Origin: Anaerolineae bacterium | GTDB lineage: Bacteria > Chloroflexota > Anaerolineae > DUEN01 | Length of the DNA: 64,000 bases | Direction: 5' to 3' | Assembly (NCBI GenBank): GCA_025060615.1 | Contig: JANXBS010000004.1 | Location: 5,400-69,399, forward strand | Part shown: piece by piece, positions 4,291 to 54,116 of the stretch | How the letters are laid out: each line of letters begins with the position of its first letter | How positions within the stretch are numbered: the first letter of the stretch is position 1 | The notes under the pieces: generated by a model | Told to the model about the DNA's origin: nothing | Database searches by the model: none | What the model saw: the letters and a program-made list of their open reading frames with translations, nothing else | Position numbers and translations under genes: made by a program

Positions 4291-4301
4291 ACGACTTCTC
4301 C

Positions 4302-5390
4302 TTACCTCATACACCGAGCTAAGGCCACAATATCCGATAACACCCCTGCGGCCGTGGCTTCCACCCCAGCTCCTCGTCCCTGCAGCACGAGCGGATCTGG
4401 CGTATACCATCGCGTGTGGAACTCGGCTAGGTTATCGCTGCCTCGCAGCCGGCCCAGCGGGCTGTCCACCGAGACAGGGCACAGGCCAACCACGCAGCGT
4501 CCTCCGGCGACTTCTGCCACATAACGCAGGGTCTGCCCTTTCCCTTGGGTGAATTGCATCCGATCGGCTAATTCCGCGTCGAACGCACGCAACCCGGCCA
4601 GAAACTCGTCTACCGTCCCCGATGCCAGGGATGGTGGGAACAGCGGCTCTACCGCTACGTCTGCTAATTCCAGATCCCAGTCTAGCATACGCGCCAAGAT
4701 CAAAGCCTTTCGGGCGACATCCAGCCCGCTCAGATCATCGCGCGGATCCGGTTCGGTATATCCCATCTCGTGCGCCTGATGCACCGCCACCGAAAACGGG
4801 CATCCTGACTCCAGCTGAGTCATCAGAAAACCCAGCGTGCCAGAGAGCGCCCCGGCGATACGCTTCACCTCGTCGCCGCTGCGGAGAAGAGCCTCTAGGG
4901 TGGCGATGATTGGCGTCCCCGCCCCGACGGTGGCCTCATGTCGCAGCCGTCCCGACGCAGTCAGCCGGCGAAATAAGGCCATTGGCCCCGTCAGCGGCTT
5001 CTTGTTGGCCAGCACCACGCCATAGCCGCGATCCAGCGCCATCTCCAACGCCGGTATCACCGCCTCGGTCGCCGTGCAATCCACCACGATCGCCCGGTCG
5101 CGGCCTGCCACGTCCACGATCGCGCGAGCGTCGGAGGCGTAATACCCATATGGCGTCTCCGCCAGCGGCGTGCCTTGTGCTTTGTGCTGTTCGATGAGCT
5201 GCAGCGTCTCATCGCTCAGGCCATTTGGCTCGACCACAGCCCCTTGGCTATCGGCCAACGCCACAATGGACAGATGTACCCCGTACCGTTCCGTGTGCAG
5301 CCGACGGTTGGCGATCATTTGTCGCAACAACGCCCGGCCCACCCCGCCGACGCCTAGGACGATGAGAGGTACGATATGCGCCGCGGCCAC
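4302..5390 (-). CDS. hom: Homoserine dehydrogenase
   Basis: 362 aa; N-terminal GVGGVG NAD(P) fold, LANKKPL, TVGAGTPII motifs typical of Hom. Confidence 0.9.
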   Translation of the reverse strand: MAAAHIVPLIVLGVGGVGRALLRQMIANRRLHTERYGVHLSIVALADSQGAVVEPNGLSDETLQLIEQHKAQGTPLAETPYGYYASDARAIVDVAGRDRAIVVDCTATEAVIPALEMALDRGYGVVLANKKPLTGPMALFRRLTASGRLRHEATVGAGTPIIATLEALLRSGDEVKRIAGALSGTLGFLMTQLESGCPFSVAVHQAHEMGYTEPDPRDDLSGLDVARKALILARMLDWDLELADVAVEPLFPPSLASGTVDEFLAGLRAFDAELADRMQFTQGKGQTLRYVAEVAGGRCVVGLCPVSVDSPLGRLRGSDNLAEFHTRWYTPDPLVLQGRGAGVEATAAGVLSDIVALARCMR

Positions 5391-5426
5391 TCAACTCCCC
5401 CCATCCGCAAGTCGCTCTGACAACAA

Positions 5427-5467
5427 AGGGGAACTGCAGGACTCCCTTCGAGGCCTTCTCAGTTCCC
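5427..5467 (-). terminator. Intergenic hairpin between lysC and hom: 9-bp perfect stem GGGGAACTG/CAGTTCCCC with a 23-nt loop, followed on the minus strand by TTTGTTGTC. Possible partial terminator or attenuator.
   Basis: Seen directly in the 195-nt lysC-hom spacer. Confidence 0.3.
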
Positions 5468-5585
5468 CTTTGAGCGGTGCCATCTCTGACAAAGTTTGTA
5501 CGGGCGCTTACCGTAGCCCACTGGCGGACAGTGCGAATCTTCGCCGATTCAAGCCAAATTTACAGGCTACATGATACCCGTGGCA

Positions 5586-6992
5586 TCATCCCTTGTCAAG
5601 TCCGAACGCGGCATGGATGCGGCGCACAGCTTCATCGCTGTCTCCCTGAGCAACGACCAGCGAGATGTTCGCCTCTGAAGACCCTTGGGCGATGGCGATG
5701 ACGTTGATGCCGGCATCCCCCAGCGCACCGAAGACCTTGGCAGCGATCCCCGGCGTGCCCTTCATGGCCGAGCCTACCACAGCTACGATAACGATGCCGT
5801 CCTCGCCGTGAATGGAGTCAATGAGCCGGCGCTCTAGCTCATAGGCCATCGCCTGACGCAGCGCTTCAAGGACACGTGCAGTATCTGCCTGGGGGATCAC
5901 AAAGCAGATGCTCTGCTCCGAGGAGGACTGCGAGATCATCAAAACGTTGGCGCCGACGCTCGCCACCGCTTGGAAGGTGCGCGCAGCGATGCCAGGGACG
6001 CCGATCATGCCCCGTCCCTCTACCGTCACCAAAGTCAGCCCCTTGATAGCGGTGATCGCCTTGACGACGTGCCCTGTGTTGTCAGCCTTGCGCACGATGC
6101 GGGTGCCCGGGTGGTCGGGATTGAACGTGTTGAGCACGTAAATCGGGATGTCCTGTTCGACAGCTGGCAAGATCGTCTTAGGGTGCAGCACCTTCGCGCC
6201 GAAGTAGGCTAGCTCAGCCGCCTCGGCATAGGAGAGCTGGGGCAACGTACGCGCTGTGGGGACGATGCGCGGGTCGGCGGTGAGTACCCCGTCCACATCC
6301 GTCCAGATCTCCACACGCTCGGCGTCCAAACAAGCTCCGACGATAGCCGCCGAGTAGTCAGAGCCGCCGCGCCCCAACGTGGTGGTGATCCCGTTTTGGG
6401 TCGCTCCGATAAAGCCCGTGACCACCGGCACCACGCCTTGCTCAATGAGGGGCAGAAGCCGCTCACGCGTGCGTTGGCGTGTAGGTTCCATCAGGGGGTT
6501 CGCGCTGCCGAAATGATCATCGGTGACGATGAACTCGCTGGCATCTACAGGTTCGGCTGGGATGCCGCGGGCATTCAACACGGCAGCCAGCAAGGGGGCG
6601 GCCAGGCGTTCGCCCAGGCTAGAGACCACGTCCAGGCCACGCGCCGTCAACTCGCCCAGGACGGCGATGCTGTGGCAGAGCTGCTCGAAGGTTGCCAGCT
6701 TCTCTTCGAACAGCCGTCCTAGCGCGGCGCGAGCCACGCCATCGGGCACGAGCTGGCCGGCCACCATTTGATGCCTAGCCAGCAACTCCGAGCGCACATC
6801 CCGATACACCTGCTCGTTCCCCTCGGCGGCGGCCTTGGCGGCCGCGATCAGGGAATTCGTAACGCCACTCATCGCTGAGGTCACCACCACCGTTTGTGGG
6901 TCCTGAGCGCGCGCCCGTTCGATGATGCTGGCAACGCGGGCGAAGGCATCGGCGTTCCCAACGGACGTCCCACCGAATTTCAAAACTCGCAT
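5586..6992 (-). CDS. lysC: Aspartate kinase (monofunctional, with C-terminal ACT domains)
   Basis: MRVLKFGGTSVGNADAF start, aspartokinase core and duplicated ACT region; GGGGAGG RBS. Confidence 0.9.
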   Translation of the reverse strand: MRVLKFGGTSVGNADAFARVASIIERARAQDPQTVVVTSAMSGVTNSLIAAAKAAAEGNEQVYRDVRSELLARHQMVAGQLVPDGVARAALGRLFEEKLATFEQLCHSIAVLGELTARGLDVVSSLGERLAAPLLAAVLNARGIPAEPVDASEFIVTDDHFGSANPLMEPTRQRTRERLLPLIEQGVVPVVTGFIGATQNGITTTLGRGGSDYSAAIVGACLDAERVEIWTDVDGVLTADPRIVPTARTLPQLSYAEAAELAYFGAKVLHPKTILPAVEQDIPIYVLNTFNPDHPGTRIVRKADNTGHVVKAITAIKGLTLVTVEGRGMIGVPGIAARTFQAVASVGANVLMISQSSSEQSICFVIPQADTARVLEALRQAMAYELERRLIDSIHGEDGIVIVAVVGSAMKGTPGIAAKVFGALGDAGINVIAIAQGSSEANISLVVAQGDSDEAVRRIHAAFGLDKG

Positions 6993-18072: not shown

Positions 18073-18846
18073 TCAATGGTGATTCCGTCCAACTTTGAGC
18101 TGCTTCCAGACCCATCCCATTAGCCATTTCAAGCCGAAAAGCATTCCGACTGCGGCGAAGACGATTAGCGTCCAACGAGCGCCGCTCCAGAACGCCCGCG
18201 CCAACCCCTGTGGGCTGAGCACCTCAGGCAGGGCAGGGAGCGCACGCACAGCAGCCGGCTGAGAAGTTCTTTCCCCTGCCAGTGCAATAGGGGTGGCCGC
18301 CGGCTCGGGCGTACCTGTGTCCACTGCTTCGGGTGTTTGCATGTCAATCACAGGCGCAATCACCACGACGGTCGGCGTCGGGGGCAACGGCGTAGGCGTC
18401 ATGGTAGGCGTGGGCGTTTCAATAGGCGTGGGGGTCTCGGTGGGCTGGGCATTGGCGACTTGCAGCCCACGTACGATGTACTCGTCATAGTTGTAATCTT
18501 GTCGCACCACCCGCAGCCGTAAGCTGTACACTCCATCGGGAAGGCCACCTGTCTCCCACGTGCCCAGGAAACCGTTGGCCACCTGATTGGTATGAGCCTC
18601 TCCAATGAACACCCAGGTGTCATCACGTGCGGGCTCCGGACTGTAGTACAGCTCGTAACGCAGGAAATTCGGATGGACGGCTGTCCCTTCAATCGTTACG
18701 CGGCCCCGCACGGTGCTAAACGGCTGAGGCGAGGTGATGACCGCCTGCTGGGCGAGCGGCGCAGCCACAACCGACCAGGCGGACATAACTATCAAGGCCC
18801 CGATGATTAACAAATAATCTACTAAACGCACCAGGTCAGGTCTCAT
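18073..18846 (-). CDS. Bitopic/membrane-anchored hypothetical protein with central beta-rich domain, Thr/Pro linker and C-terminal TM helix
   Basis: ATG at 18846 (MRPDLVRLVDYLLIIG TM segment) with AGGAA RBS; TETPTPIETPTPTMTPTPLPPTPT linker; second TM near the C-terminus. Confidence 0.5.
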   Translation of the reverse strand: MRPDLVRLVDYLLIIGALIVMSAWSVVAAPLAQQAVITSPQPFSTVRGRVTIEGTAVHPNFLRYELYYSPEPARDDTWVFIGEAHTNQVANGFLGTWETGGLPDGVYSLRLRVVRQDYNYDEYIVRGLQVANAQPTETPTPIETPTPTMTPTPLPPTPTVVVIAPVIDMQTPEAVDTGTPEPAATPIALAGERTSQPAAVRALPALPEVLSPQGLARAFWSGARWTLIVFAAVGMLFGLKWLMGWVWKQLKVGRNHH

Positions 18847-34445: not shown

Positions 34446-35066
34446 TCATGGGCGAATCTCGATTCTGATTTTCCCTTCGCCGATCTGCAAATCCCTAACG
34501 TAGAAGCCGGCCGTGTACTGCGTTAGAGCCTGCTCAGCGATGCCAGGCAACATACGGGTCATCAGGTTTAAAGGCTGCAACTGCTCGACTGCCATGCGCA
34601 CTCGCCCGTTCTCGGCCCACAGCCGAATCGTAGCCTGTAAGTTGCTGATGGATAGCAATCCGTAACGCAACTGGCCTGCCTGCACCTGCACCCGTCCGCC
34701 AGTAAAGCGTACCGTCAGGTCGGTCACCTGAACCTGTCTCTGCACCTCTTCGCTAACGATGGCCTCCTCGATCATGCCCTCAGTGATCTCCCATACAATG
34801 CGATCCGGGGTGGGCGTGGCTACTGCCTCGACTTTTGGCGTAGGCGTGGGAGTGGACGTAGGCGTCGGCGTTGGCGTAGGCGGGATTGGTGTCGGCGTCG
34901 CAGTGGGTGTCCAAGTAGGGGCCACCGTTCCAGGCAGGGGAACTGGCGTGAGCGACACGAGCGCCGGGAGCTGAGGTGGCATGCAGGCAGCTATCCAGAG
35001 CGCCAACGCTACAAGCCATCCCCAACCCATCCATTTCAGCTTTAGCATGTGGCTCTTTCGTTGCAT
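34446..35066 (-). CDS. Exported/lipoprotein-like hypothetical protein with Thr/Pro-rich linker and C-terminal beta domain
   Basis: Signal peptide (…WIAAC lipobox-like), TPTATPTPIPPTPTPTPTSTPTPTP linker. Confidence 0.5.
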   Translation of the reverse strand: MQRKSHMLKLKWMGWGWLVALALWIAACMPPQLPALVSLTPVPLPGTVAPTWTPTATPTPIPPTPTPTPTSTPTPTPKVEAVATPTPDRIVWEITEGMIEEAIVSEEVQRQVQVTDLTVRFTGGRVQVQAGQLRYGLLSISNLQATIRLWAENGRVRMAVEQLQPLNLMTRMLPGIAEQALTQYTAGFYVRDLQIGEGKIRIEIRP

Positions 35067-35177: not shown

Positions 35178-35711
35178 TCATCCTGTTGAAACAAGCGTTT
35201 GCTCGCAGGCATGACGCAGGCCACAACCTAGGCAGCGAGCGGGATCTTGATGTGAACGAGCGACCTCAACGCGCGTCAATGCTCGCCGCAGTTCAGTCAA
35301 AGTCTCTAGCACCGCTTGTCGTAGGGCATCGTCGAAGGGTACCACCAGAGTGGCATCATCGTAACACAGTAACCCATGCGAGGGTCGATGGCTAGCCCAA
35401 TCCTCGACCAGTAGACAGTAGGCAGCTAGTTGTAGAAGATGAGACGGATGAGGGTGTATAGGGCGAGGGCCAGATTTGACCTCGACCGGGATGATCTCTC
35501 TCCCATGCTTAACCAGATAGTCTGGGCGGCCGACCAATCCCCAACGCCGGCTGATGATGGACGTCTTCACGCGCCACCACCGACTCGTGTCAGCATAGAT
35601 CACGCGGCCGGCTGGCAACCCAGCAGCCCGGCTAATGCGGCTGGACCACCACAACATGAGCGCGCCTGTCACGATGAGCAGAAAGGCGATCCCCCACAAT
35701 ACAGCGGACAA
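35178..35711 (-). CDS. Membrane-anchored PD-(D/E)XK nuclease core, Cas4/DUF83 family, with C-terminal CX2CX5C cluster but no N-terminal Cys motif
   Basis: N-terminal TM helix, then GRPDYLV…IIPVEVKSG (motifs II/III), LLQLAAYCLL (QhxxY), C-terminal ARCLGCGLRHAC. Confidence 0.6.
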   Translation of the reverse strand: MSAVLWGIAFLLIVTGALMLWWSSRISRAAGLPAGRVIYADTSRWWRVKTSIISRRWGLVGRPDYLVKHGREIIPVEVKSGPRPIHPHPSHLLQLAAYCLLVEDWASHRPSHGLLCYDDATLVVPFDDALRQAVLETLTELRRALTRVEVARSHQDPARCLGCGLRHACEQTLVSTG

Positions 35712-35782: not shown

Positions 35783-36502
35783 CTACCCTTTCGCCGGTGG
35801 CCTCGTCCACGGTAGGATGATAATCGGTACGCCATACGGTCCCCACCGCGTAAACCACTCGGCATCCTCCGGGCGCAGGCGGATGCATCCACGGCTGGCC
35901 GGAAATGCGCCCAATGCATACATCTCCTGGTACCGCTTGACGCCGTTCTCGATCACGTAGGGAGCACCGTGGATCAAAATATGGCCCTCATGCCGGAACA
36001 GGAACCAGCCGTGATCGGCGCTCACGCCATTGGCCGAGAAAGTCCCCCAATACTCGCCGACCCGGCCCACCCAGGCCGGCGTGCGATATCCTTGATCCGG
36101 ATCCCCGCTGCTAATCGGCAGATCTGCTACGATTACACCGCCCTCCGCTACGATCATACGTTGGCGGTCCTGGTCTACCACGATAAAGCGGCCATTGGGA
36201 TCGAACCCGTTCTCTTCCACCAACGCCCGAAGGCGCGTATCGGGCGTTGGGATGGGAGTGGGGATCACAGGATCGGACATGATCCAGGCTGATGGCCGCG
36301 TGGGTGACGGCAAGAGAGTTGGCGCAGACAATGGGGTAGGAGACGGGCGTGGCGGCCGCATCCAAGGCTCGCCGGGGAAGTCAGCGCGCTCAGGAGCCGC
36401 CAGATCTTGCGAGTGGGTGAGGGTCATTACCCACCAAGCCACGAATGCAAGGGAGAACATCAGCCCCAGCCGCAGGAGTAGGCGCTTGCCCCTTCTAAAC
36501 AT
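35783..36502 (-). CDS. L,D-transpeptidase (YkuD domain) with N-terminal signal anchor
   Basis: Catalytic motif HGAPYV…SRGCIRL; start ATG overlaps the stop of the upstream 82-aa ORF (ATATGTTTAG). Confidence 0.8.
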   Translation of the reverse strand: MFRRGKRLLLRLGLMFSLAFVAWWVMTLTHSQDLAAPERADFPGEPWMRPPRPSPTPLSAPTLLPSPTRPSAWIMSDPVIPTPIPTPDTRLRALVEENGFDPNGRFIVVDQDRQRMIVAEGGVIVADLPISSGDPDQGYRTPAWVGRVGEYWGTFSANGVSADHGWFLFRHEGHILIHGAPYVIENGVKRYQEMYALGAFPASRGCIRLRPEDAEWFTRWGPYGVPIIILPWTRPPAKG

Positions 36503-42310: not shown

Positions 42311-43900
42311 ATGTCGTCCTTGATGAGCTATCAACTACGGCAACGGGAATACCTGCTGGAGATCAGCCGGGCGATGACAGCCCGCCTCGAGCTCGGTGCC
42401 GTCTTGCGGCTTATCCTGACCTACGCCGCTGAAATGGTCGGAGCCGAGGTGGGCTTGATCGCCCTGAGCGAGCGCAACGGTGAGCTAGTCGTAAAGGCCT
42501 CGTACGGGATCCCAGCTCAGCTCTTGCCGCGCTTCGCCCCGTTGCTGACCGATATCCCGCGTCTAATGGATTTGCAGCAGCGCACTGGCTGGCAGATCCC
42601 CGATCTCAACCTACGCCTGCATGCCGTCTCGGCAGCAGTGGGCTTGCCTCTGGACCAGGTCATCTCCTTACCGTTGGTGGTGGAGGATGAGCCGCTGGGG
42701 GTGATTTACCTCTTCCGCTCCGGCAGCCTCGCTTTCACCAGCAACGACCGCCGGGTGTTGATGGCGTTCGCTGCGCAGGCTGCGATTGCTGTGCGCAACG
42801 CCCGGCTGTATTCAGACCTGGTCGCTGGCAAGCAACGGCTGGACGCGGTCATTGAGAACTCGGCCGACGGCATCATGATCCTGGATCCACAACGGCGGAT
42901 CGAGATCATCAACCGGGCGATGTTGCAGATGACCGGGTGGTCGCGCGAGGACGCCCTTGGGCAGCCATGCCACAAAGTGCTGGCTTTGCAGAACATCGAA
43001 GGAAACGATATCTGTCAAATCGAGAACCCAGAGGCCCAGTTGCCGCGTCAGGGGACCCTCTATGTCGAAGGGGAGCTCATACGTCCCAGCGGCTCGCGCC
43101 TGGTGGTGGGCGTCCGCTACACCCCGCTGTGGGATGAGGCGGGCCACCTACGCAACATCATCGTCAACGTGGTGGACATTACCCGCTACCGGGAGGCGGA
43201 GGACATGAAGCGCACCTTCATCTCCGTGATCTCCCATGAGCTGAAGACCCCTGTGGCTCTGATCAAGGGATATGCGACGACGCTGGCTCGCGAGGACGCC
43301 CATTGGGATCAGGAGACCCTGCGCGAGGGCCTGCGCGTGATCGAAGAGGAGAGCGACCGTCTCAACAGCCTGATTGACAACCTGCTGGATGCCTCGCGCA
43401 TCCAGGCCGGCGTGTTGAAACTAGAGATGGGGGATGTAAACCTACCACAACTCGTGCGTCGCGCAGTTGAGCGGTTCTCCACCCAGACTGATCGGCATCA
43501 ATTTGAGATTGATTTCCCAGAAGACTTTCCCATTGTGCTGGGGGACGATGAGCGACTACGACAGGTGCTGGATAACCTGATCAGCAACGCCATCAAGTAC
43601 TCGCCTGACGGCGGCGTAATTCGCATCGGCGGATGGGCGGATGAAGACCAGGTGACCGTGTATGTGGCCGATCAAGGGATTGGCATCCCGCCAGAGGAAC
43701 ACAGTCGGCTCTTCAACCGATTTTACCGGGTGGATTCCAGCCTGCGCCGCAAGACGCAAGGAGCAGGTCTAGGGCTGTTCCTGTGCAAGTCGCTCGTTGA
43801 GGCCCATGGTGGGCATATCTGGTTCCGCTCGGAGCCGGGGAAAGGCTCTACCTTTTTCTTCTCACTGCCCATCGCTAAGGGCGAAGCTGCGGCACGATAA
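42311..43900 (+). CDS. Sensor histidine kinase with GAF and PAS domains
   Basis: HisKA H-box ISHELKTPVALIKGY, HATPase N/G boxes (LDNLISNAIKYS, DQGIGIP, GAGLGL). Confidence 0.85.
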   Translation: MSSLMSYQLRQREYLLEISRAMTARLELGAVLRLILTYAAEMVGAEVGLIALSERNGELVVKASYGIPAQLLPRFAPLLTDIPRLMDLQQRTGWQIPDLNLRLHAVSAAVGLPLDQVISLPLVVEDEPLGVIYLFRSGSLAFTSNDRRVLMAFAAQAAIAVRNARLYSDLVAGKQRLDAVIENSADGIMILDPQRRIEIINRAMLQMTGWSREDALGQPCHKVLALQNIEGNDICQIENPEAQLPRQGTLYVEGELIRPSGSRLVVGVRYTPLWDEAGHLRNIIVNVVDITRYREAEDMKRTFISVISHELKTPVALIKGYATTLAREDAHWDQETLREGLRVIEEESDRLNSLIDNLLDASRIQAGVLKLEMGDVNLPQLVRRAVERFSTQTDRHQFEIDFPEDFPIVLGDDERLRQVLDNLISNAIKYSPDGGVIRIGGWADEDQVTVYVADQGIGIPPEEHSRLFNRFYRVDSSLRRKTQGAGLGLFLCKSLVEAHGGHIWFRSEPGKGSTFFFSLPIAKGEAAAR

Positions 43901-45440
43901 ACCCGAACAGCGCCAGCAGATCGAGGGCGGCCATCCCCAGATAGACGAGCGCCAGATACACACCGCGCCATCGCGCCGGCGTCAAGCCGACAAAGCCCAA
44001 TGCGATCCCCGCCCCGCCCCCTAGCGCAGCCGTCCATCGGCTCACATGGCCACGAGAGAGGCCGAAAACGAGATAGCCCAATGTGGCGATCAGTAGCAAG
44101 CCTGCCATCCACTGGCTAAGGCGCGGTTGCAACACCCGATCCAATCCCACAGCGAAGCACAGCCCCCAAACTGGCAACGCTGGGAACAGGTAGCGCCCTT
44201 GGTGCTGCACAAATGTCAGATTGTACCAAACATATGCGCCAATGGTCAGTAGCAGCCACACCAGCATCCACGCAATCACTTGCCTCTGCGCGCTCCCCTC
44301 GTTGATCATCGTAGCCGGCGAGCTCTCGTCACTATGATGTTGCTCTCCTCTTTCAAGGCTTTCTATAGCCCTCGGACGAACATGAGGACCTGGTCGTCTG
44401 CCAGGCTGAAGCACCTCCCAGACCGCCACCAGGCATCCCACCGCTATCACCGCGCTCAGGATCGCCAGCGCAAGGTAGATGCGGCTGTCCATGAGCACGC
44501 CCATCCAACCGAATTGTCCCCAGAAGCTACGAAAGGTGGTGACACCTGCCTGTCGCAATAGCTCGACCGATCCCATCTGTGCCAGCCATTCGCTCGTGCG
44601 CGGCTGGCCAACCACTACCAAGTTGTGCTGCCTGAGGCCCAGGATGTCGCCGGGGCCGTATACCAGCCAGTTACGGACCCACCAGGGCAATCCCAGCAGT
44701 ATCCCAGGCCCCAATCCCAACGCCAAACGCCGGGCCCAATCCCGACCATCACTCGCGCCGCGCCATAGAATCGCTAGGAAAACCAACGGCCACGCCAAAT
44801 AAGCGGTAGTCTTAGTCAGAAAGCCTAGCCCGGTGAGCAGAGCCAGGCCTAGGAGCAGCCAACGGTCGCGTCGCCAGTCCCCTTTGCTGCGCAGATAAGC
44901 CAACGACAGAGCCGCGCATCCGGCGAGAATCCACTCGCCCAGGATATCGTTGTTGACGGCTGCGCTCATCGCTATGTGCTGGGGTAAAAACGCCGCAAAG
45001 GCCGTTCCCCCCAACGCCAGTCCCTCGCGGCCCGGAAGTGCGATGCGCAGAAGCCGATAGATCGTCCATAGCAGCCCTACCCCCAGCGCCACGCTGAAGA
45101 GGCGCAACGCGATCAACCGACCATCGGCCAACCGGTACACAGGCACTGCTAGCACATAGTAGAGCGGAGGCTGATGAGACTCGTATCGGATGGGATCTAC
45201 AGACATGTCAGCGGGGAAGCGGCGCGCCTTGATCTCCTCGAGATAACCCTGATTGTAATCGCCCGGCTGAAGGATGGGGAGTTGTCCCTTCTCAGCCAGG
45301 TCACGGATGTAGTTATAGTGGGCCGGTTCATCGGGGGCTTGCCAAGCGGGGGTGAAGACAGCATATAGGCTGGCGATGACCACGTAACCCACGAGGATTA
45401 AACCGAGCAAGATGCGCGACCATGTGGCGGCAGGTGACAT
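43875..45440 (-). CDS. Polytopic membrane glycosyltransferase of the PMT_2/GT39-GT83-like (ArnT/Pmt) type
   Basis: 521 aa, >10 TM helices, first periplasmic loop with APDEPAHYNY (DE motif); stop overlaps HK stop. Confidence 0.55.
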   Translation of the reverse strand: MSPAATWSRILLGLILVGYVVIASLYAVFTPAWQAPDEPAHYNYIRDLAEKGQLPILQPGDYNQGYLEEIKARRFPADMSVDPIRYESHQPPLYYVLAVPVYRLADGRLIALRLFSVALGVGLLWTIYRLLRIALPGREGLALGGTAFAAFLPQHIAMSAAVNNDILGEWILAGCAALSLAYLRSKGDWRRDRWLLLGLALLTGLGFLTKTTAYLAWPLVFLAILWRGASDGRDWARRLALGLGPGILLGLPWWVRNWLVYGPGDILGLRQHNLVVVGQPRTSEWLAQMGSVELLRQAGVTTFRSFWGQFGWMGVLMDSRIYLALAILSAVIAVGCLVAVWEVLQPGRRPGPHVRPRAIESLERGEQHHSDESSPATMINEGSAQRQVIAWMLVWLLLTIGAYVWYNLTFVQHQGRYLFPALPVWGLCFAVGLDRVLQPRLSQWMAGLLLIATLGYLVFGLSRGHVSRWTAALGGGAGIALGFVGLTPARWRGVYLALVYLGMAALDLLALFGFIVPQLRP

Positions 45441-45483
45441 ATGAACTCCCCTGAAACGAGCGATGGGATTGCCTTCGCCTGCC

Positions 45484-47532
45484 CTATGGCTGCAGCGCTG
45501 CCGGCAGCGAGAGGGTCACGGCTGGCGGATTGCTCATGGGCGGATCGGCGTCGCGCACGGTGAGCCGCAAGCCGCTAGCGTCACTCGCCACATCGAACAC
45601 GATCACACCGATGGCCGTTTCCCAGGGCGCCAGTTTATGCAGCGCCAACGAGAGCAACCCATGTTGCTCTGCGTAGCGGTTGGTAGCTGCGATGTTCACC
45701 TCATACCGACGGCCTCGGCTGTCCCGCACTCCTTCGCCGAAAGTCAAACTAGCAGCGATCTGTTGATAACCACCGCTTCGGTTCACGATTCGCAATGGCA
45801 CGACTAGAAAGCGACCCTGCTCCGGCCGAAGTGTAGGCGCGCCCTCCAGCAGGTTTACGAGCGTCGGCGTGCTGACGGCGATTTCGAGATCACCGACTAC
45901 CTGAACCGGGCCGAAAGCAAGCTGAGGCGGTGTAGGCGTGGGCGTCGCTAAACGCACTTCTCCGGGCGGGTGCATAGCAATGGCCGAATCAGCGGCGACC
46001 TGTAATTGCGTGATAGACAGCCGCAATGCGCCTAGCTCGCGCGGGAGCTCGCCGGCGGTCAACCATGGCGGCGTATCCACCTGGATGGATCGCTGGCGGT
46101 CGCCTCGACGCGCGGTCAGCCGATAGGTCAGGCATGTGGGACAAGACTTGCCGAATCTATCTTGGGAGAGGTCAAAGAGGCCCTGTCGCTCTAGCTGCCC
46201 CAGCAGCGCCGCCACATCCTCGGGCCGGCCATGCACCACCCATTGCTGGGCGCGACGGCGATCTTCGATGACCACCCTTCCGTCCTGGAAGTAGCTCACC
46301 TGGCGATCCACCTGGAGGCTCTGGCTCTCGTAGGAGAAGACGACGACAGCCTCCACGGGTGATCCGGGTGTTACGATGGGAGTGCTCGTCGGGATGTGAG
46401 ATGTCGCCGTGTGGGTAGCCGTGGGCGGCTTTGCCATCGCAGTGAAGGTAGCGGTCGGCGGCACTAGTGTAAGCATGGGCGTGGGCGGTTTCGGGGTCGC
46501 CGTCGGGGAGACTGTAGGCGTGTGAGTAGGCAGTCGTGTCGCCGTAGGACTGGCTGTTGCAGTGGCTGAGGGTGTTACGGTGGGCGCGACGGTAGCCGTC
46601 AGAGTGGGGGTTGACGTTGCCGTTGGACTGGGAGTCCATGTCTCGGTAACCGACGGGGTAGGGGTGGCCGAAGGAGTCGCCGTGAGCGTTGCGGTCGGTG
46701 CCCCGGTGGGCGTCGCCGTCGGAGAGGGAGAAGGCGTTTTTGTCCCAGTGGGCGAGGGTGTAAGCGTTGGAACGGGCTTCTCCGTCTCAGTAGGGGAGGG
46801 CGTAGCCGTTGGGACAGGTGTCTCTGTCTCAGTGGGCGAGGGAGTCGCTGTAGACGTTGCGGTTGGCGTCTCCGTCTCGGTAGGCGTCGCCGTCGGAGAG
46901 GGAGGGAGTGCCTCGGTCTCGGTGGGCGACGGAGTAGCTGTCGGGACAGGCGTGAGCGTCCCGGTGGCTGAGGAGGTCGCTGTAGGCATTGCGGCTGGCG
47001 TGAATTCCTCAATCGCACTTGCTGCAGCTTCCAGCGTCATCACCGGCGCGGAGAAAGGCGAGACAGTTGCGGTGGGTGTGGCCGTCTGAGGTATCGAGGC
47101 GACCTCACCGAGCCTGATAGGAGGTATTGGTCTCATGGTAGGGGAGGGTAGGAGCGGAGTCGGCGTTGAACTGGGCTCGAAGGTAGCGGTAGGGCTCGCC
47201 GTAGCGGTTGGGCTGGGCTCAAAGGCTGCGGTGGGGCCCTCCGTAGCGCTCGGGGTTGCTGTTGGCTCAACGGTGGCTGCAGCGCTTTCCGTAACGGTAG
47301 GAGACGCCATCGCTACAGGCTGCGCCGTTGGAGATGACGGGGGGGGCGGCGTATCAGGAGGCAGGGTCAGCGTGCTCGTAGGAAGAGGCGGCGTACTTGT
47401 GAAAGTGAGCATGGGAGGCGGAGGAGTCAAACCAACTTGAGAAGCACCTCTCCCCCTGGCGATCAGCCATGCTGCCCCGATGATGAGCACAGAGAGGACA
47501 ATACCGATGATCAGCAAACGTGAGGAACTCAT
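45484..47532 (-). CDS. Signal-anchored surface protein with ~350-aa Thr/Pro/Ser/Ala-rich region and C-terminal globular domain
   Basis: ATG 47532 with GGAGG RBS; MSSSRLLIIGIVLSVLIIGAAWLIA anchor; long PTxT repeat region; immediately upstream of, and co-oriented with, the PMT-like gene. Confidence 0.6.
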   Translation of the reverse strand: MSSSRLLIIGIVLSVLIIGAAWLIARGRGASQVGLTPPPPMLTFTSTPPLPTSTLTLPPDTPPPPSSPTAQPVAMASPTVTESAAATVEPTATPSATEGPTAAFEPSPTATASPTATFEPSSTPTPLLPSPTMRPIPPIRLGEVASIPQTATPTATVSPFSAPVMTLEAAASAIEEFTPAAMPTATSSATGTLTPVPTATPSPTETEALPPSPTATPTETETPTATSTATPSPTETETPVPTATPSPTETEKPVPTLTPSPTGTKTPSPSPTATPTGAPTATLTATPSATPTPSVTETWTPSPTATSTPTLTATVAPTVTPSATATASPTATRLPTHTPTVSPTATPKPPTPMLTLVPPTATFTAMAKPPTATHTATSHIPTSTPIVTPGSPVEAVVVFSYESQSLQVDRQVSYFQDGRVVIEDRRRAQQWVVHGRPEDVAALLGQLERQGLFDLSQDRFGKSCPTCLTYRLTARRGDRQRSIQVDTPPWLTAGELPRELGALRLSITQLQVAADSAIAMHPPGEVRLATPTPTPPQLAFGPVQVVGDLEIAVSTPTLVNLLEGAPTLRPEQGRFLVVPLRIVNRSGGYQQIAASLTFGEGVRDSRGRRYEVNIAATNRYAEQHGLLSLALHKLAPWETAIGVIVFDVASDASGLRLTVRDADPPMSNPPAVTLSLPAALQP
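46777..46951. repeat. Imperfect tandem DNA repeat (period ~42-48 nt) encoding the [ATPSPTETETPVPT]n units
   Basis: Repeating tctccgtctc(a/g)gt(a/g)gg… units read in sequence. Confidence 0.4.
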
Positions 47533-47735
47533 AAATAGACCTCCGAGCCGAGGCCATCTGAAAAGCGGCGCAAGCAGCTGAACGCATTCTACTCCAGGCG
47601 TGAGGAAAAGCAAGCTAGCTAGGTGGAAGAAGAGACCCCCCTCCGCCACCTCAAAGGCCGGGGGTCAGGGGTACGCGCTCATCTGATTTCTGTCCCGCTC
47701 GCATTGTCTTCAAGGCATTTCCAAAGGGGTTCAGC

Positions 47736-49505
47736 CTAGCGAGTGCTGGCCGCTACCAGCCTTTCCACTTCTTGCTCGATCACAGACTCTTCCAGCTTGC
47801 GGAAGAGGGGCTGTGGCTCGCGCAGCGGCTGTCCGGGCGGAAGGCGCTCAGGCCTCCAGGCTGCCGACAGCCCCGAGACATCGTAGCGCAGCGCCAGATG
47901 AGAGCGCTCTGTTTCATGATAGGTTTCCACATACTGCCGACCAAAGAGGGTGCCCTTATGCCCTAGATACTCATGCAGCTTTTGCGAAGAGAAGGGCAGG
48001 AATGGGCTGAAGATTACCCGTAGCCAATCCACCGCTTGCAGGCAGACGTAAATGCTAGTGGCGGCAGCGGTCGGATCGGTCTTGATTTGCTGCCAGGGCT
48101 CCTTCGCATTCAAATAGCGATTGGCTTCTTGGGCTAGGCTCATGGCTTCGGCGAGGGCGGCCTTGAAGTGACACCCCTCGATCTGCCGGCCGACAGACTC
48201 GAAGCCGGCCTCGATGCGGGCCAGCAGGGCGCGGTCGGCCTCATCCAGCTCCCCTGGCTCGGGCACGCGGCCGTCAAAGCGACGGTAGGCGAAGCTGAGC
48301 ACCCGATTCGCCAGGTTGCCCCATGTCGCCACCAACTCGGTGTTGTTGCGACGGACGAATTCCTCCCAAGTGAAGTTGACATCTGCCGTCTCCGGCGCGT
48401 TGATGGTCAGGATATAACGCCATGGGTCGGGGTCGTACCGTTGCAGGACATCCAGCACCTCGATCACCCAACGGCGTGATTTAGAGAGCTTCGCTCCCTC
48501 AACGTTCAGGTACTCGTTGGCCGGCACGTCGTAAGGCAGGTTCAACCCGCCGTACGCGTAGAGCATCCCTGGCCAGATGATGGTGTGAAATGGAATGTTG
48601 TCCTTGCCAATAAAGTAGTAACTCTTTACATCGGGCGCGATAGCCGAATCCCACCACTCTCGCCACGCCTCTGGTTGACCGGTGATCTTGGCCCACTCTT
48701 TGGTGGCTGAGAGGTAGCCAATCACCGCATCGTACCAGACGTAGATGCGCTTACGCTCATAGCCGGGCAGCGGGATGGTGACACCCCATTGGATGTCACG
48801 GGTAATGGGCCGGCCGCGTAGTTCGCCTGACTCCAGTTGTGCCCGCGTGAAATTGAGGACGTTGGGGCGCCAGTGTTCCTTGTCTTGGCGGATCCACTCT
48901 AGGAGGGGAGGATTCAGTTTCCCCAAATCCAGGAAGAAGTGCTCCGTCTCTCGGATGACGATCTCAGCGCTTCCACACACCTTACAGCGCGGGGTGATCA
49001 GCTCAATGGCATCCAATGTGCGACCGCAATTGTCACACTGATCGCCGCGGGCGCTGGTGGAACCACAATACGGGCACGTCCCCTCGACGTAGCGATCGGC
49101 GAGGAACCCCTGATGGCGGTTGCAGTAGGGGGCTTGTTGGATGTCCTTGTAGATATAGCCACGCTCCAGGTGGCGCAGAAACATGTCCTGGGTGACCGCC
49201 CAGTGGTTCTCCGTATCTGTCTCAGTGAACAGGTCGAAGGTGATGCCCAGCTTCTGGAACATCTCTAAGAAGCGCGGATGATAGCGATCTACCACCTCGC
49301 GCGGCGTGATGCCTTCCTCTTCAGCGCGTACGGTGATCGGGGTCCCATGCGTGTCAGAACCCGACACCATCAGCACCCGGTTCCCTTTCAGACGATGATA
49401 GCGGGCGAAGATGTCTGGTGGCAGGTAGGCGCCGGCGATGTGGCCGATATGCAAATCGCCGTTGCAGTAAGGCCAGGCGACGCAGACCAGGATTTTCTCA
49501 GGCAT
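47736..49505 (-). CDS. metG: Methionine--tRNA ligase
   Basis: HIGH motif ([12 protein letters not shown]), zinc knuckle CPYCG…CDNCG, KLSKS. Confidence 0.9.
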
Positions 49506-49870
49506 AGCTCCACACTCCTATGAGACTAGCGGTCAGATCCAAACGAACAGCTAACCCTGTCTTAGCGAGTCATATAAACTCGGAGGATAGTCACAGATTA
49601 ACACAAAACGAGCAAAACGTGAACTTCCGCTCATGCAGCACTACTGCACTTCAGCGTGGTTGAAGAAGCGGAGAGTTCCGGACAGACTCATCCCCTCTCA
49701 CGAGGGCTTTTAACCAATTCTTTACTCACCCCCTCTAGGCCATGGGAGAGGCCAACTGAGTCAGAAAAAGGCAGGTGAAAGTTAAGAGAAGGTTTATTAA
49801 GTGCAAAGCGAACGTGATTGGCCTTGACAGGCTACCAGCCTTGTTGACATGTCGCTTCGCCTCATATAAG

Positions 49871-50593
49871 ATGTTAGCAACATTTGCTAGAGGGCTGCTC
49901 TTGCGCACGAGTATACTGCGACGACTGGAACGCCTGACTTTGCTGATCTTCCTGCTGGCGCTTGGAGGTAGCGCGCTACTAACCGAAGAGCTGCGTAGCT
50001 GGGGGGAACAGGCTCGCCAGTTGGTCCAGTTCTTGCCCATTCCCGGCCTCATCAGCCCACTGGAGGGACGACGTGTGGGCTTAGTCGCTGGACACAGTGG
50101 CAACGACTCCGGCGCCGTCTGCCCGGATGGCTTGCGTGAGGTGGATGTTAATCGGGCGGTCGTGTTACGGACGGCGGAGCGGTTGCGTCGAGCCAGGGCT
50201 GAGGTAGATGTGCTGGATGAGTTCGACGAGAGACTTGTCAACTACCGAGCGGATGCCCTGGTGTCCATTCATTCAGACTCGTGCATCGACGCCACCGGGT
50301 TTAAAGTCGCCCGCGCGATCACCAGCGCGATTCCAGAGATCGAGGATCGGTTGGTCGCCTGTCTTTATCAGGCCTATGGCCAGGTGACCGGGCTTCCCCG
50401 CCACGACGGCAGCATCACAGTGAACATGACCCGATATCATGCGTTTCGCGTGATCGCCCCAGAGACGCCTGCAGCCATCATTGAGTTAGGGTTCCTAGGA
50501 GGAGATCGCGATATCCTCACTCGTGATCAAGACCGCCTGGCGAAAGGCGTGGCCCAGGGGATCATCTGTTTCCTAACGGAATCTCAGCCCTGA
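49871..50593 (+). CDS. N-acetylmuramoyl-L-alanine amidase (Amidase_3 family)
   Basis: VGLVAGHSGNDSGAV…ADALVSIHSDS motifs; start uncertain (ATG 49871 or GTG 49775). Confidence 0.7.
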   Translation: MLATFARGLLLRTSILRRLERLTLLIFLLALGGSALLTEELRSWGEQARQLVQFLPIPGLISPLEGRRVGLVAGHSGNDSGAVCPDGLREVDVNRAVVLRTAERLRRARAEVDVLDEFDERLVNYRADALVSIHSDSCIDATGFKVARAITSAIPEIEDRLVACLYQAYGQVTGLPRHDGSITVNMTRYHAFRVIAPETPAAIIELGFLGGDRDILTRDQDRLAKGVAQGIICFLTESQP

Positions 50594-52545
50594 TCGGCCA
50601 GTCTGGGCTTGCCGATCATGAGTTGCATCAGCCCCCATCCACCGCGATCACCGGTATAGTCATTGGCTGGCCCTGGCTCCGCGCTGAACGTCAGCGTGAC
50701 CTCACGCCCACGCCACGGTGTCAGATCCACGGTTACATCGTGCCAGCGCTGATCCTCCGGCCCGTTGCCGATATGCCTTTGGAAGGCTACCGATGGGCCC
50801 CCTCCATCATCTATTGCGAGCACAAAGGTGGCACCATCGCCGCCCCATCCCCACGTGACTGGGTCAAGCGCCAGGCTCAACCACAAAAAGGCAGGCTGAT
50901 CAGGCAAGCGTAGTCGATAGCTCACTTGCGCCGGCGGATGGGTCACCATCACCGGCCGCGTGTCCCCATTCTGCGGCATAGTGAACCGGGTGATGGCGAC
51001 GTACTGACATATCGTTGGGTCCTCGCCGGGTTCAGCCTCGCACAAAGGCTGTGGCGGATGCTGCACCTGCGCTTGCGAGAACTCAGCAATCAGATCGTGA
51101 ACACGATAGATGGCCAACAAGTCCACCTTGGCAGGGTTCAGCTCTACACGCTGGTAAGCATGATTGCTCCACACCCACGGCGTGGTGAGACACAGGGACG
51201 ATGTGAGCAGGGCAACGCCGACGCGCCGGGCAAGGGCTGGCGTCGCTTGGGCAACCATATGCGCCGTCCAGGCCGTCACCGGCACAGATGCGATAGCGAA
51301 AAGGTCCCAATCATCTGGCCGTGGCAGCTTGTTGTCAAAGGCCAACGAGTAAGCCAGCACGCCCAGGGTGGACGTACCCCAAAACGTCCCAGACCGGCCT
51401 TGTGACCTCCAGCCTATAGCTAGTAACAGAGCCGCGGCAATTACAGAGGGCGCAACCAAGTACAGGTTGTTGAAGACATCGAGCAGGTGACCTGGCGATA
51501 GCATCTCCCTCGCGGAAAGCCATAGCCGGGTGTCATCAGCGAAGCGATTCACTCCGATCTGCAATGGCGGTGCGCCGATTGCCTGCGCCAGCCCGAAGAG
51601 GATTAACAAGGGCACTGCCAGCCCGATCGCCAGCCAGAACACTTGCCTGAGTACCAGCCTAAGGGCCGGACAGGCAATCTCAAAAGGATAGCGCTGACGT
51701 GCAGTCGGAGGACCGTCGCGGCCTGGCTCTGCTGCACTTCGCAACGGGTTGCAAACAGAACCGAGCAAAACCGCCAGGGAGGGAGCCAGAAAAACTGCCT
51801 GAGGGTGAAATGCGATTGCCAGCCCCAGCGTACCTGCGGCCCAGACAGGATGTCTACGTCCATGCAGCGTCTGAAGCGCCAGCCACATGTAGCCAAGCGC
51901 GGTCGCCGTCACCAGCGTATAGTTCTCCACATGCCCAAAGAAGAGCTGCATGGCGCCAGGGGATAGCAACAGCGCAAAGGCCAGCCCACGGCGCAAGGCG
52001 TCATCCGCCATCTCCCCAGCCAGCCGCCAGGCGATCCACACATAGGCCACTCCGGCCAGACAACTGACCAAAGCGATAGCCCGCCAGGCATCCCAGCCAA
52101 CGAGGGCATGAGTGATCTGATATACGGCGACCACCAGCAGGCGATCCAGCGGCTCCTTCCAGAAGTACTCGCCGCGCCAAGTGGTGCGCCATCGCCCCTC
52201 CAGCAGCGCCAGCGTGTAGAGAGCATCCCCCCACAGCGTGCGCTCTCGCAGTAGCCAAAACAGGAGTCCACTGGCGATCAACAGCGCAGCACCCACCGCA
52301 CGCGGCGCTCGCGCCAACCAGCCGATGGCTCGCTCTAAGGCGCAGCTTACCCATTCCACCGCCGGCGGCAGCAGCGCGGCGAACGGCAGCGCGACCAGGA
52401 TTATGCGTGCTGGCCAGGGCAGGTCGGTCAGCGCGCGCATGGCCCACAATGCCTCACGGCCGGACAACAAGAGGGCTAATACCGCAAAGATAAGGGCGTT
52501 GAGCAAGAGCGCCAGCGAAGTTCGGCGTGCTATTGGGAGGGACAT
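50584..52545 (-). CDS. Polytopic membrane protein with C-terminal extracytoplasmic domain, possibly a glycosyltransferase of the PMT/DUF2723-like type
   Basis: 653 aa, many TM helices in the N-terminal 400 aa, soluble C-terminal ~200 aa. Confidence 0.45.
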   Translation of the reverse strand: MSLPIARRTSLALLLNALIFAVLALLLSGREALWAMRALTDLPWPARIILVALPFAALLPPAVEWVSCALERAIGWLARAPRAVGAALLIASGLLFWLLRERTLWGDALYTLALLEGRWRTTWRGEYFWKEPLDRLLVVAVYQITHALVGWDAWRAIALVSCLAGVAYVWIAWRLAGEMADDALRRGLAFALLLSPGAMQLFFGHVENYTLVTATALGYMWLALQTLHGRRHPVWAAGTLGLAIAFHPQAVFLAPSLAVLLGSVCNPLRSAAEPGRDGPPTARQRYPFEIACPALRLVLRQVFWLAIGLAVPLLILFGLAQAIGAPPLQIGVNRFADDTRLWLSAREMLSPGHLLDVFNNLYLVAPSVIAAALLLAIGWRSQGRSGTFWGTSTLGVLAYSLAFDNKLPRPDDWDLFAIASVPVTAWTAHMVAQATPALARRVGVALLTSSLCLTTPWVWSNHAYQRVELNPAKVDLLAIYRVHDLIAEFSQAQVQHPPQPLCEAEPGEDPTICQYVAITRFTMPQNGDTRPVMVTHPPAQVSYRLRLPDQPAFLWLSLALDPVTWGWGGDGATFVLAIDDGGGPSVAFQRHIGNGPEDQRWHDVTVDLTPWRGREVTLTFSAEPGPANDYTGDRGGWGLMQLMIGKPRLADQG

Positions 52546-52547
52546 CT

Positions 52548-54116
52548 TTACTGCTTCGCGTCTGAGCTCAGGAGATAGCGCAGGATGATCCCATGCACCA
52601 CCTGTTCGATGGGTGCTCGATCGTCGGTGAAGATCGGCGTGTCCGGCAAAGGCTTCGCGACTCGGGCCTGAGGCAGCGCCCGACGCATTACCTCAATTAT
52701 CAATGGATGGGTTAGAGCGGCCGCATTGACGTGCAGGTTCTCTAGCCGGGTTGGCTGCACCGTGCCCACCACCAGGCTATTTCCCAACCCGTAACCGAGG
52801 TCGGGCTCGTCCACGATGTAAACGGAGGGGAAAACTTGAGACAGCGTGGCGGCCAGAGCGTCTACCAGCCGATAATCGTCATGGGTCCGGCCTACGTTGA
52901 CGGCGATCACACCCTCATCAGTCAGATGGGCGCGTGCGAGCTCGAAAAATTCTACTGTGGCTAGATGAAACGGGATATATGGCGGTCGGTACGCATCAAC
53001 AGCGATCACATCATAACGGCGATCGGTCGTCTGCAAGAAAAAGCGACCATCTTGAGCCACAGCTCGTATGTTCAGCTGGGTCATGGCGAAATAGCGTTGC
53101 CCTGCTTCGATTACAGTTGGGTCTAGCTCGACGCCGTCAATGGGAATAGAGCCAAACACCTGTGTATACAGATGGGCGATCGTGCCGCCGGCCAAGCCGA
53201 TCAAACAGAGGCTATCCACCTGCTCGGTGGAATATGGTGGCGAATTGAAAAAGGGGACTATTAAAAAGTAGTCCCAAATCCCCTCGCTTAGAGCCATATC
53301 CGGAGCATAGACCGATTGCAGGCCCTGTCCCTCATTGAGCAACAGCCGCATCTCCCCATCTTGGTGTACGACCTGAACATAGTTGTATGGCGTCTCCGCC
53401 TCGAATACCAGGCCGGGAGCGGGCTTGATGGGCGCTGACCGGGCAACCCAGGCGATGAGGAGCACGATCAGCAGCATACCGGCGTAGGGGAACAGGGCGC
53501 GGGCGCGATGTGTGCACAACCAGATGCCGTAGCAGGCGATTGCTAACAGGCCGATCCCGAGCATGCTGAACGTCTGACGCGTACCGACCTGAGGGATCAG
53601 CACTAACACCGGCAGAAAAACGCCCAAAATACTGCCGACAGTGGAAAGCGCGTAGATGCGCCCAGATGCCTGGCCGGTGGAATCCACGTGAGTGACGGTT
53701 AATCGTACGGCGAAAGGCGCGATGCACCCCAACAGGATCACGGGGACAGCCAGAAGGGCCAAGACACCGCTAAGCGATCCCCCCAGCAAGGCCAGGTCGA
53801 AGCGCACATCGTCAAAGCCGCGCGCCGCTAGACTCAACACCGGCCGAGAGAGCAGCGGCACCCATCCGATGAGGAAGCCGGCCCATGCAGCCAGTTGGCA
53901 CAGTGTCAGCAAGTTGGGAGAGCGGTCGGCCAAACGACCGCCAAGGGTATAGCCTACCGAAAGATATAGCAAGATGAGGCCGATCAGGCTAGCCCAAACG
54001 AGTATGGAACTGCCAAACCAAGGTTCTAACAAGCGGGACGCCGCCAGCTCAACCCCCAGCGTGGTCATGCCGGCAACGAAGACCAGCACATTCAGATAGC
54101 GTGTTTGTGCCTGCAC
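52548..54116 (-). CDS. Spermidine/spermine synthase-family protein fused to an N-terminal multi-TM domain
   Basis: N-terminal ~7 TM helices, C-terminal aminopropyltransferase-like fold (…DVIAVDAY…). Confidence 0.65.
   Translation of the reverse strand: MQAQTRYLNVLVFVAGMTTLGVELAASRLLEPWFGSSILVWASLIGLILLYLSVGYTLGGRLADRSPNLLTLCQLAAWAGFLIGWVPLLSRPVLSLAARGFDDVRFDLALLGGSLSGVLALLAVPVILLGCIAPFAVRLTVTHVDSTGQASGRIYALSTVGSILGVFLPVLVLIPQVGTRQTFSMLGIGLLAIACYGIWLCTHRARALFPYAGMLLIVLLIAWVARSAPIKPAPGLVFEAETPYNYVQVVHQDGEMRLLLNEGQGLQSVYAPDMALSEGIWDYFLIVPFFNSPPYSTEQVDSLCLIGLAGGTIAHLYTQVFGSIPIDGVELDPTVIEAGQRYFAMTQLNIRAVAQDGRFFLQTTDRRYDVIAVDAYRPPYIPFHLATVEFFELARAHLTDEGVIAVNVGRTHDDYRLVDALAATLSQVFPSVYIVDEPDLGYGLGNSLVVGTVQPTRLENLHVNAAALTHPLIIEVMRRALPQARVAKPLPDTPIFTDDRAPIEQVVHGIILRYLLSSDAKQ

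Follow-up and report, generated by a model that had tools for sequence, protein, structure and literature searches.

The stretch of DNA analysed here (64,000 nucleotides of contig JANXBS010000004.1 from an Anaerolineae bacterium of the phylum Chloroflexota; hereafter the window) carries on its minus strand a gene for a 682-residue Thr/Pro-rich protein and, directly downstream, a gene for a 521-residue polytopic glycosyltransferase of the GT-C class (Table 1). An earlier note, made from the sequence alone, had proposed that these genes form a dedicated protein O-glycosylation pair. The gene order of related genomes does not support such a pair, and by analogy with other GT-C enzymes the glycosyltransferase is most likely a housekeeping enzyme conserved across the class Anaerolineae and using a polyprenyl-phosphate sugar. 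The boundaries of both open reading frames (ORFs) are identical in the public gene call on an NCBI contig of identical sequence (GCA_033581235.1, a metagenome-assembled 'Anaerolineae bacterium').

Table 1. Features of the window discussed in the text, in positions of the window.
Feature	Coordinates	Strand	Basis or remark
Thr/Pro-rich membrane-anchored protein gene, 682 amino acids	45484..47532	-	ORF list and public gene call
N-terminal hydrophobic helix, signal anchor, residues 6-24	47461..47517	-	Kyte-Doolittle score 2.92; translation LLIIGIVLSVLIIGAAWLI; kept in orthologues
Thr/Pro/Ala/Ser-rich disordered region, residues ~35-393	46354..47430	-	Composition; net acidic
First folded domain, alpha/beta, residues ~394-520, with CxxC	45973..46353	-	Predicted model, predicted local distance difference test (pLDDT) ~90
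DUF4352 beta-sandwich domain, residues 547-661	45550..45894	-	Pfam PF11611, 27.3 bits (cut-off 25.9); translation checked
Intergenic spacer, 43 nt	45441..45483	-	Shine-Dalgarno-like GGGGAG before the enzyme ATG
GT-C membrane glycosyltransferase, 521 amino acids, ~13 transmembrane helices	43875..45440	-	Pfam PMT_2, AlphaFold model, Foldseek
Codons for D37-E38, acidic pair that opens the first extracytoplasmic loop	45327..45332	-	Translation WQAPDEPAHY
metG (methionyl-tRNA synthetase)	47736..49505	-	Pfam tRNA-synt_1g and Anticodon_3
GAF-PAS histidine kinase gene, convergent	42311..43900	+	Shares 26 nt with the 3' end of the enzyme gene
Exported protein with signal peptide, Thr/Pro linker of ~40 residues and C-terminal membrane anchor	18073..18846	-	Six-frame scan
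Putative lipoprotein, lipobox-like IAAC, Thr/Pro linker of ~40 residues straight after the Cys	34446..35066	-	Six-frame scan
Small GT2 glycosyltransferase, 262 amino acids	26050..26838	-	Pfam Glycos_transf_2, 88.7 bits

The 682-residue ORF begins with an ATG at 47532, just 5' of which lies GGAGG, and four orthologues begin with the same conserved N-terminus, M[SN]SSRLL. A longer form starting at a GTG at 47649 is unlikely because the orthologues share the M[SN]SSRLL start, and it was rejected on this conservation together with the orthologue of locus L001 (L numbers designate the loci and contigs compared), in which the frame upstream of the start has space for 15 codons only. As the earlier note had described, the protein is signal-anchored and about half of it is Thr/Pro-rich: residues 6-24 form its sole hydrophobic helix, and the stalk that follows comprises 359 residues, or 53% of the protein, with 25% Thr, 21% Pro, 13% Ala and 10% Ser. 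The word 'giant', applied to it in that note, is too strong for 682 residues. The PTxT motifs described there are present (29 PT.T motifs in residues ~35-393), but the stalk is low-complexity sequence rather than a series of exact repeats, and at the DNA level the only tandem repeats in it are a 42-bp unit present 2.6 times (46732..46842) and two short 18-bp arrays. Approximately 140 Ser and Thr residues stand in a Pro-rich setting along the stalk, a composition that fits, as had been proposed, the preference of actinobacterial Pmt for Pro-rich Ser/Thr stretches (PMC12331936). In the orthologues the acidic Thr/Pro region varies in length from 255 to 363 residues, and the anchor and the folded domains are retained. 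The stalk is likely to be extracytoplasmic, and we place it outside the cell on the basis of the DUF4352 domain and of the other proteins with Thr/Pro linkers, which are clearly exported.

The C-terminal 290 residues form two folded domains (pLDDT of the model, 76). Structural searches with Foldseek gave only weak, Mago-like fold matches for the first of these. Its C464 and C467 (SCPTC, 46132..46143, minus strand; C72 and C75 in alignment A3) are invariant, and the protein is otherwise free of Cys; the CxxC could be a disulfide, redox or metal site on a surface-exposed domain. The second domain matched the DUF4352 proteins YjhA of Bacillus subtilis (3cfu) and 4les of Bacillus anthracis, with which it shares the same beta-sandwich, whereas the 682-residue protein adds to this fold a stalk of ~360 residues and the alpha/beta domain with its CxxC. 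Among 5.8 billion proteins the folded module has seven homologue clusters, all of which are at least 55% identical. The Thr/Pro region also yields long spurious ORFs (46562..47089 and 47135..47440 on the plus strand, 46172..46639 on the minus strand), those on the opposite strand being Gly/Val-rich, and it has misled public gene calls: the L001 orthologue (4214..5948) is split in two, with the first call in the wrong frame, and several database homologues are shortened to the last ~290 residues.

Profile searches assigned the 521-residue enzyme to Pfam PMT_2 (PF13231; 38.3 bits, cut-off 26.1), in agreement with its description in the earlier note as GT39/GT83-like, but the family-level assignment sought there goes no further than this, given that the matches to DUF2142 (PF09913; 16.5 bits, cut-off 30.1) and to a TMEM260-like family lie under threshold and that PMT (PF02366) gave no match at E<=0.1. 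Neither did an NCBIfam scan at the same threshold, in which the ArnT models were included. Among 61 homologues of the enzyme, scanned at E<=0.01, PMT_2 was matched by 59, DUF2142 by 38 and PMT (PF02366) by 10, and PMT_4TMC (PF16192) by neither the enzyme nor any of the 61. Because searches of PDB sequences, with the single enzyme sequence as well as with a profile of the 61 sequences, returned no match, the classification rests on Pfam and on the fold. The AlphaFold model (pLDDT 91.7) has ~13 membrane helices and a long first external loop, together with an Arg-rich loop of low confidence at residues 345-374. At E<=0.001 its Foldseek matches were exclusively GT-C enzymes (ArnT, AglB, Pmt4, STT3, AftB and Emb), at 10-17% identity; the top match was ArnT (5f15; E 7e-6, template modelling (TM) score 0.48, 15% identity), Chaetomium Pmt4 reached the same TM score of 0.48, and ArnT, AglB and Pmt4 could not be separated by this criterion, all having TM scores of about 0.43-0.50 to the model. 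The polytopic fold of the model, with an N-terminal seven-helix module and the long first external loop, agrees with the GT-C_A type. Judged by the predicted model, the protein is a bona fide GT-C enzyme of the PMT_2 kind, and judged by its sequence it lies outside both the strict GT39 Pmt family and ArnT. The term 'PMT-like' is thus apt for the GT-C clan and for PMT_2, but not in the strict GT39 sense, for which PF02366 and PMT_4TMC are missing. The enzyme is an uncharacterised new member within a known kind, and its NCBI label is already 'glycosyltransferase family 39 protein'.

An ArnT-type function, in which the enzyme would modify lipid A or lipopolysaccharide with an aminoarabinose-like sugar, might be suggested by the JGI automatic names of many homologues ('4-amino-4-deoxy-L-arabinose transferase-like') and by the rank of 5f15 in the structural search. 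ArnT itself (GT83, undecaprenyl-phosphate-4-amino-4-deoxy-L-arabinose:lipid A transferase) shares with the enzyme the PMT_2 match and ~13 transmembrane helices, but the enzyme is devoid of the C-terminal soluble domain of ArnT, and its similarity to 5f15 is equal to that to Pmt4 and about equal to that to AglB. Moreover, no ArnT model of NCBIfam was matched, the 61-homologue profile retrieved no ArnT sequence from the PDB, and Chloroflexota are generally held to have neither lipid A or lipopolysaccharide nor an outer membrane. We therefore regard an ArnT-type role as highly improbable; the earlier note had set such a classification against its own proposal, and what was found is that ArnT is one of several equally distant folds.

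The acidic pair of loop 1, noted earlier, lies in the sequence APDEPAHY straight after helix 1 of the enzyme, and D37 and E38 are invariant in the 61 homologues, as are R416 and Y417, located after helix 9; D165 is nearly so. Five further invariant residues of this alignment are aromatic (F303, F306, W307, F310 and W312) and fall in the long loop between helices 7 and 8. In the Pmt of Mycobacterium tuberculosis the essential residues are D74 in loop 1, D176 in loop 2 and R441/Y444 in loop 5, a catalytic set that according to the authors is common to most GT-C enzymes, and an aromatic, WW-like loop 4 picks Pro-rich Ser/Thr peptides (PMC12331936). The position of D37-E38 is, by analogy, presumed to be that of the catalytic base, D37 being the counterpart of the essential D74 (PMC12331936). 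This Pmt (Rv1002c, GT39, with the polyprenol-phosphate-mannose synthase Ppm1) resembles the enzyme in being a GT-C protein of ~500 residues with no MIR domain, and in having an Asp (Asp-Glu) where external loop 1 begins and conserved Asp, Arg and Tyr residues in later loops; in addition, the host of the enzyme is rich in exported Pro/Thr linkers, the composition preferred by the mycobacterial enzyme (PMC12331936). On the other hand, the enzyme has neither PF02366 nor PMT_4TMC, ~13 predicted helices instead of 11, and a structure no closer to the PMTs than to ArnT or AglB.

The homologues of the enzyme are numerous, the counts obtained (>5000 database matches and at least 567 GTDB species) being lower bounds, and the best 80 relatives all belong to Chloroflexota (Anaerolineae, Caldilineae, Thermoflexales and Ca. 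Amarolinea). Ca. Amarolinea aalborgensis (L055) is among the carriers of an orthologue. Gene order was surveyed in the 74 species loci for which 2 kb or more of upstream DNA was available, and the frequency of adjacency was counted over 85 loci. In 33 of the 74 species loci metG lies upstream of the enzyme gene on the same strand, and in 30 the two genes are directly adjacent, with gaps of ~9 to 190 nt. By comparison, the Thr/Pro-rich gene was found upstream of the enzyme in only two of the 74 species (L012 and L013), in addition to contigs L001, L002 and L003 and the window itself. All enzymes with such a neighbour are at least 60% identical and form one shallow clade, in which the Thr/Pro-rich gene separates metG from the enzyme gene in every contig whose fetched DNA contained metG; no metG was found in the fetched DNA of L001. 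In the closest relatives outside the clade (L030, 55% identical, and L047, 50% identical) metG is followed directly by the enzyme gene. The simplest history to be read from these arrangements is an insertion of a clade-specific gene just ahead of the enzyme gene, within a metG-enzyme pair such as is seen elsewhere. The linkage with metG (loci L015-L081) ties a membrane glycosyltransferase to the gene of a tRNA synthetase; actinobacterial pmt genes (Rv1002c, cg1014) are presumably also only a few genes away from metS.

ORFs with Thr/Pro linkers are common in these genomes: 41 were counted in 839 kb of related loci, approximately one per 20 kb, and among their products are lipoproteins and one protein that carries a Tat-type signal. 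The adjacency of a Thr/Pro-rich gene to the enzyme, observed in 4 of 85 loci and in a single lineage, is therefore no more than the background of such ORFs, and within the surveyed loci it did not recur independently in any other lineage. Thr/Pro ORFs found downstream of the enzyme in other lineages were discarded as candidates, given that five of them represent one conserved lipoprotein gene at least 0.8 kb away and three are spurious frames. This lipoprotein (~620-650 residues; L021, L031, L051, L059 and L063) belongs to one other Anaerolineae lineage, in which its gene lies on the opposite strand, downstream of the enzyme gene by ~0.8-1 kb. Its lipobox precedes a Thr/Pro linker, and it is possibly a solute-binding protein; it shows how common Thr/Pro linkers are on Anaerolineae lipoproteins.

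These observations bear on the proposal that the stalk of the upstream-encoded protein is the specific O-glycosylation substrate of the enzyme, for which pilin-specific GT-C enzymes and adhesin glycosylation clusters offer comparisons. The shared strand and the 43-nt gap were confirmed, no terminator-like site was found in the spacer, and co-transcription of the two genes is plausible, even probable, so that the 'co-operonic' arrangement of the earlier note stands as an organization of genes but not as a demonstrated functional unit. All contigs examined from the clade (the window, L001, L002, L003, L012 and L013) also show the adjacency, and the stalk offers its many Ser and Thr residues as potential acceptors. 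Against this, the enzyme group spans at least 567 species but the neighbour is confined to one shallow clade, metG directly followed by the enzyme gene is the more widespread order, the frequency of adjacency is that of the background, and no clade-specific changes were found among the conserved enzyme residues in the 61-homologue alignment. The gene-order survey thus largely refutes the dedicated pair, and we consider it improbable. The pairing is better described as an accident of gene order than as an enzyme-substrate module, because the Thr/Pro-rich gene was inserted upstream in one shallow lineage only, and its product is, by prediction, a young, lineage-restricted surface protein. In other words, the neighbourhood had been correctly observed but is recent and lineage-specific, and its functional reading had been drawn from composition alone.

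On the other side of the enzyme gene, the convergent GAF-PAS histidine kinase gene follows directly in L002, L003 and the window, and two genes intervene in L001, where a response regulator gene adjoins the kinase gene; the kinase is 84-96% identical throughout the clade delimited by enzymes of at least 60% identity.

For the enzyme itself, which is class-wide and probably constitutively expressed, we favour a role in general protein O-glycosylation of Thr/Pro linkers, to which we give a probability of about 0.4. The enzyme would take a single sugar off a polyprenyl-phosphate sugar at the outer face of the cytoplasmic membrane, as inferred from GT-C enzymes, and pass it to an extracytoplasmic acceptor with D37 as the base. 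The acceptors would be Thr and Ser residues of the Pro-rich linkers carried by many exported proteins, in a general system akin to actinobacterial Pmt, and the 682-residue neighbour would be one substrate among many. A six-frame scan of the window detected exactly three ORFs with Thr/Pro-rich stretches, all of them exported; besides the 682-residue protein these are the two further linker proteins that the earlier note had listed, both of which proved real. The broader statement that the whole metG-linked GT-C group is the general protein O-glycosyltransferase of the class Anaerolineae, representing a Pmt-like lineage outside strict GT39 that would act on Thr/Pro-rich linkers in a large share of the exported proteins and lipoproteins, seems to us somewhat unlikely.

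Several observations weigh against this role. Protein acceptors and glycan or lipid acceptors cannot be told apart by Pfam or by structure, and ArnT is nominally the best structural match. The ~13 helices of the enzyme are closer to ArnT and PglB than to the 11-helix PMTs, and among the homologues DUF2142 matches outnumber PMT matches (38 and 10 of 61, respectively). As for the neighbour, a single Arg before its hydrophobic helix and two after it leave the orientation of the protein ambiguous. Finally, the pair is retained with a short gap across a clade whose enzymes are 60-100% identical, which is compatible with some functional coupling.

A different acceptor is only slightly less probable: at the outer face of the membrane, the enzyme may decorate a cell-wall glycopolymer or a membrane glycolipid, in other words a polysaccharide attached to peptidoglycan or to a lipid, with a side-chain sugar taken from a polyprenyl-phosphate sugar, the Thr/Pro-rich neighbour being unrelated to its function. 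GT-C enzymes of the Gram-positive rhamnose-polysaccharide and teichoic-acid pathways add side-chain sugars of this type, and the bacterial GT-C enzymes characterised so far act mostly on glycans. The top structural match, ArnT, has a lipid acceptor and a similar helix count, and the housekeeping conservation and metG linkage of the enzyme fit a core envelope function. The frequency of DUF2142 matches among the homologues points in the same direction, since streptococci encode DUF2142 proteins in loci for cell-wall polysaccharides: the rgp loci of Streptococcus thermophilus, which specify a rhamnose-containing cell-wall polysaccharide, combine genes for polytopic DUF2142 proteins with GT2 genes (PMC9746298). 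These proteins are, like the enzyme, polytopic and GT-C-like, but the enzyme's own DUF2142 score is under the cut-off and its gene lies outside any polysaccharide locus. A Bac_transf phosphoglycosyl transferase is encoded within 5 kb of the enzyme in L001 and L004, yet this association is limited to those two loci, the window shows no cluster of polysaccharide genes near the enzyme, and no glycopolymer acceptor of Anaerolineae was identified in the analysis. A polysaccharide-cluster context was accordingly rejected, as the Bac_transf gene and a conserved convergent gene for a protein of ~500 residues, both near the enzyme in L001 and L004, are absent from the other loci and from the window.

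General O-glycosylation of linkers, the reading we prefer, has a parallel in the streptococcal GtrB/PgtC2 and PgfS/PgfM1 systems, in which the sugar is loaded onto undecaprenyl phosphate by a GT2 enzyme and then passed by a GT-C enzyme to extracytoplasmic Ser/Thr-rich disordered regions of many membrane-associated proteins (PMC12041528). The logic, GT2 plus GT-C, is that of the general system proposed here, whereas PgtC2 and PgfM1 belong to the YfhO family of GT-C enzymes rather than to PMT_2, and their substrates are poly-Ser/Thr tracts instead of Thr/Pro linkers. In the window, the small GT2 glycosyltransferase could supply the lipid-linked sugar donor and is listed here as a candidate on the basis of its sequence. 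Among NCBIfam models it comes closest to polyprenyl-phosphate sugar synthases (PpgS, AglJ, dolichyl-phosphate hexose transferase and ArnC), though every score falls far short of its cut-off, and its gene is unlinked to the Thr/Pro-enzyme pair, lying 17 kb away between a LysM/M23 peptidase gene and a regulator gene.

Anaerolineae, which are filamentous, abound in activated sludge, sediments and hot springs. If linker glycosylation is confirmed, it would put a name to the enzyme behind a very common feature of their exported proteins, extend Pmt-like general O-glycosylation beyond Actinobacteria, and place protein glycosylation in a phylum for which our search of the literature on protein O-glycosylation or O-mannosyltransferases in Chloroflexi found nothing relevant. 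By-products of the analysis are a class-wide orthologous group with candidate catalytic residues (D37, E38, D165, R416 and Y417) and its linkage to metG in many species.

Among the remaining genes of the window, a stand-alone gene for a Cas4-like PD-(D/E)xK nuclease (35178..35711, minus strand) adjoins a gene for a YkuD L,D-transpeptidase (35783..36502, minus strand), and both are close to the Thr/Pro-linker lipoprotein gene. Farther along, two genes on the minus strand lie 2 nt apart: 50584..52545 encodes a 653-residue polytopic membrane protein whose C-terminal part is soluble and which matches no Pfam family, and 52548..54116 a 522-residue membrane protein with a spermine/spermidine-synthase-like domain. 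The 653-residue protein was considered as a remote paralogue of the enzyme and rejected, given that the profile comparison was not significant (probability 1.7%); the alignment obtained (FWKEPLD...) fell inside the PMT_2-matching region of the enzyme profile. An Amidase_3 gene (49775..50593, plus strand) is convergent to this gene pair.

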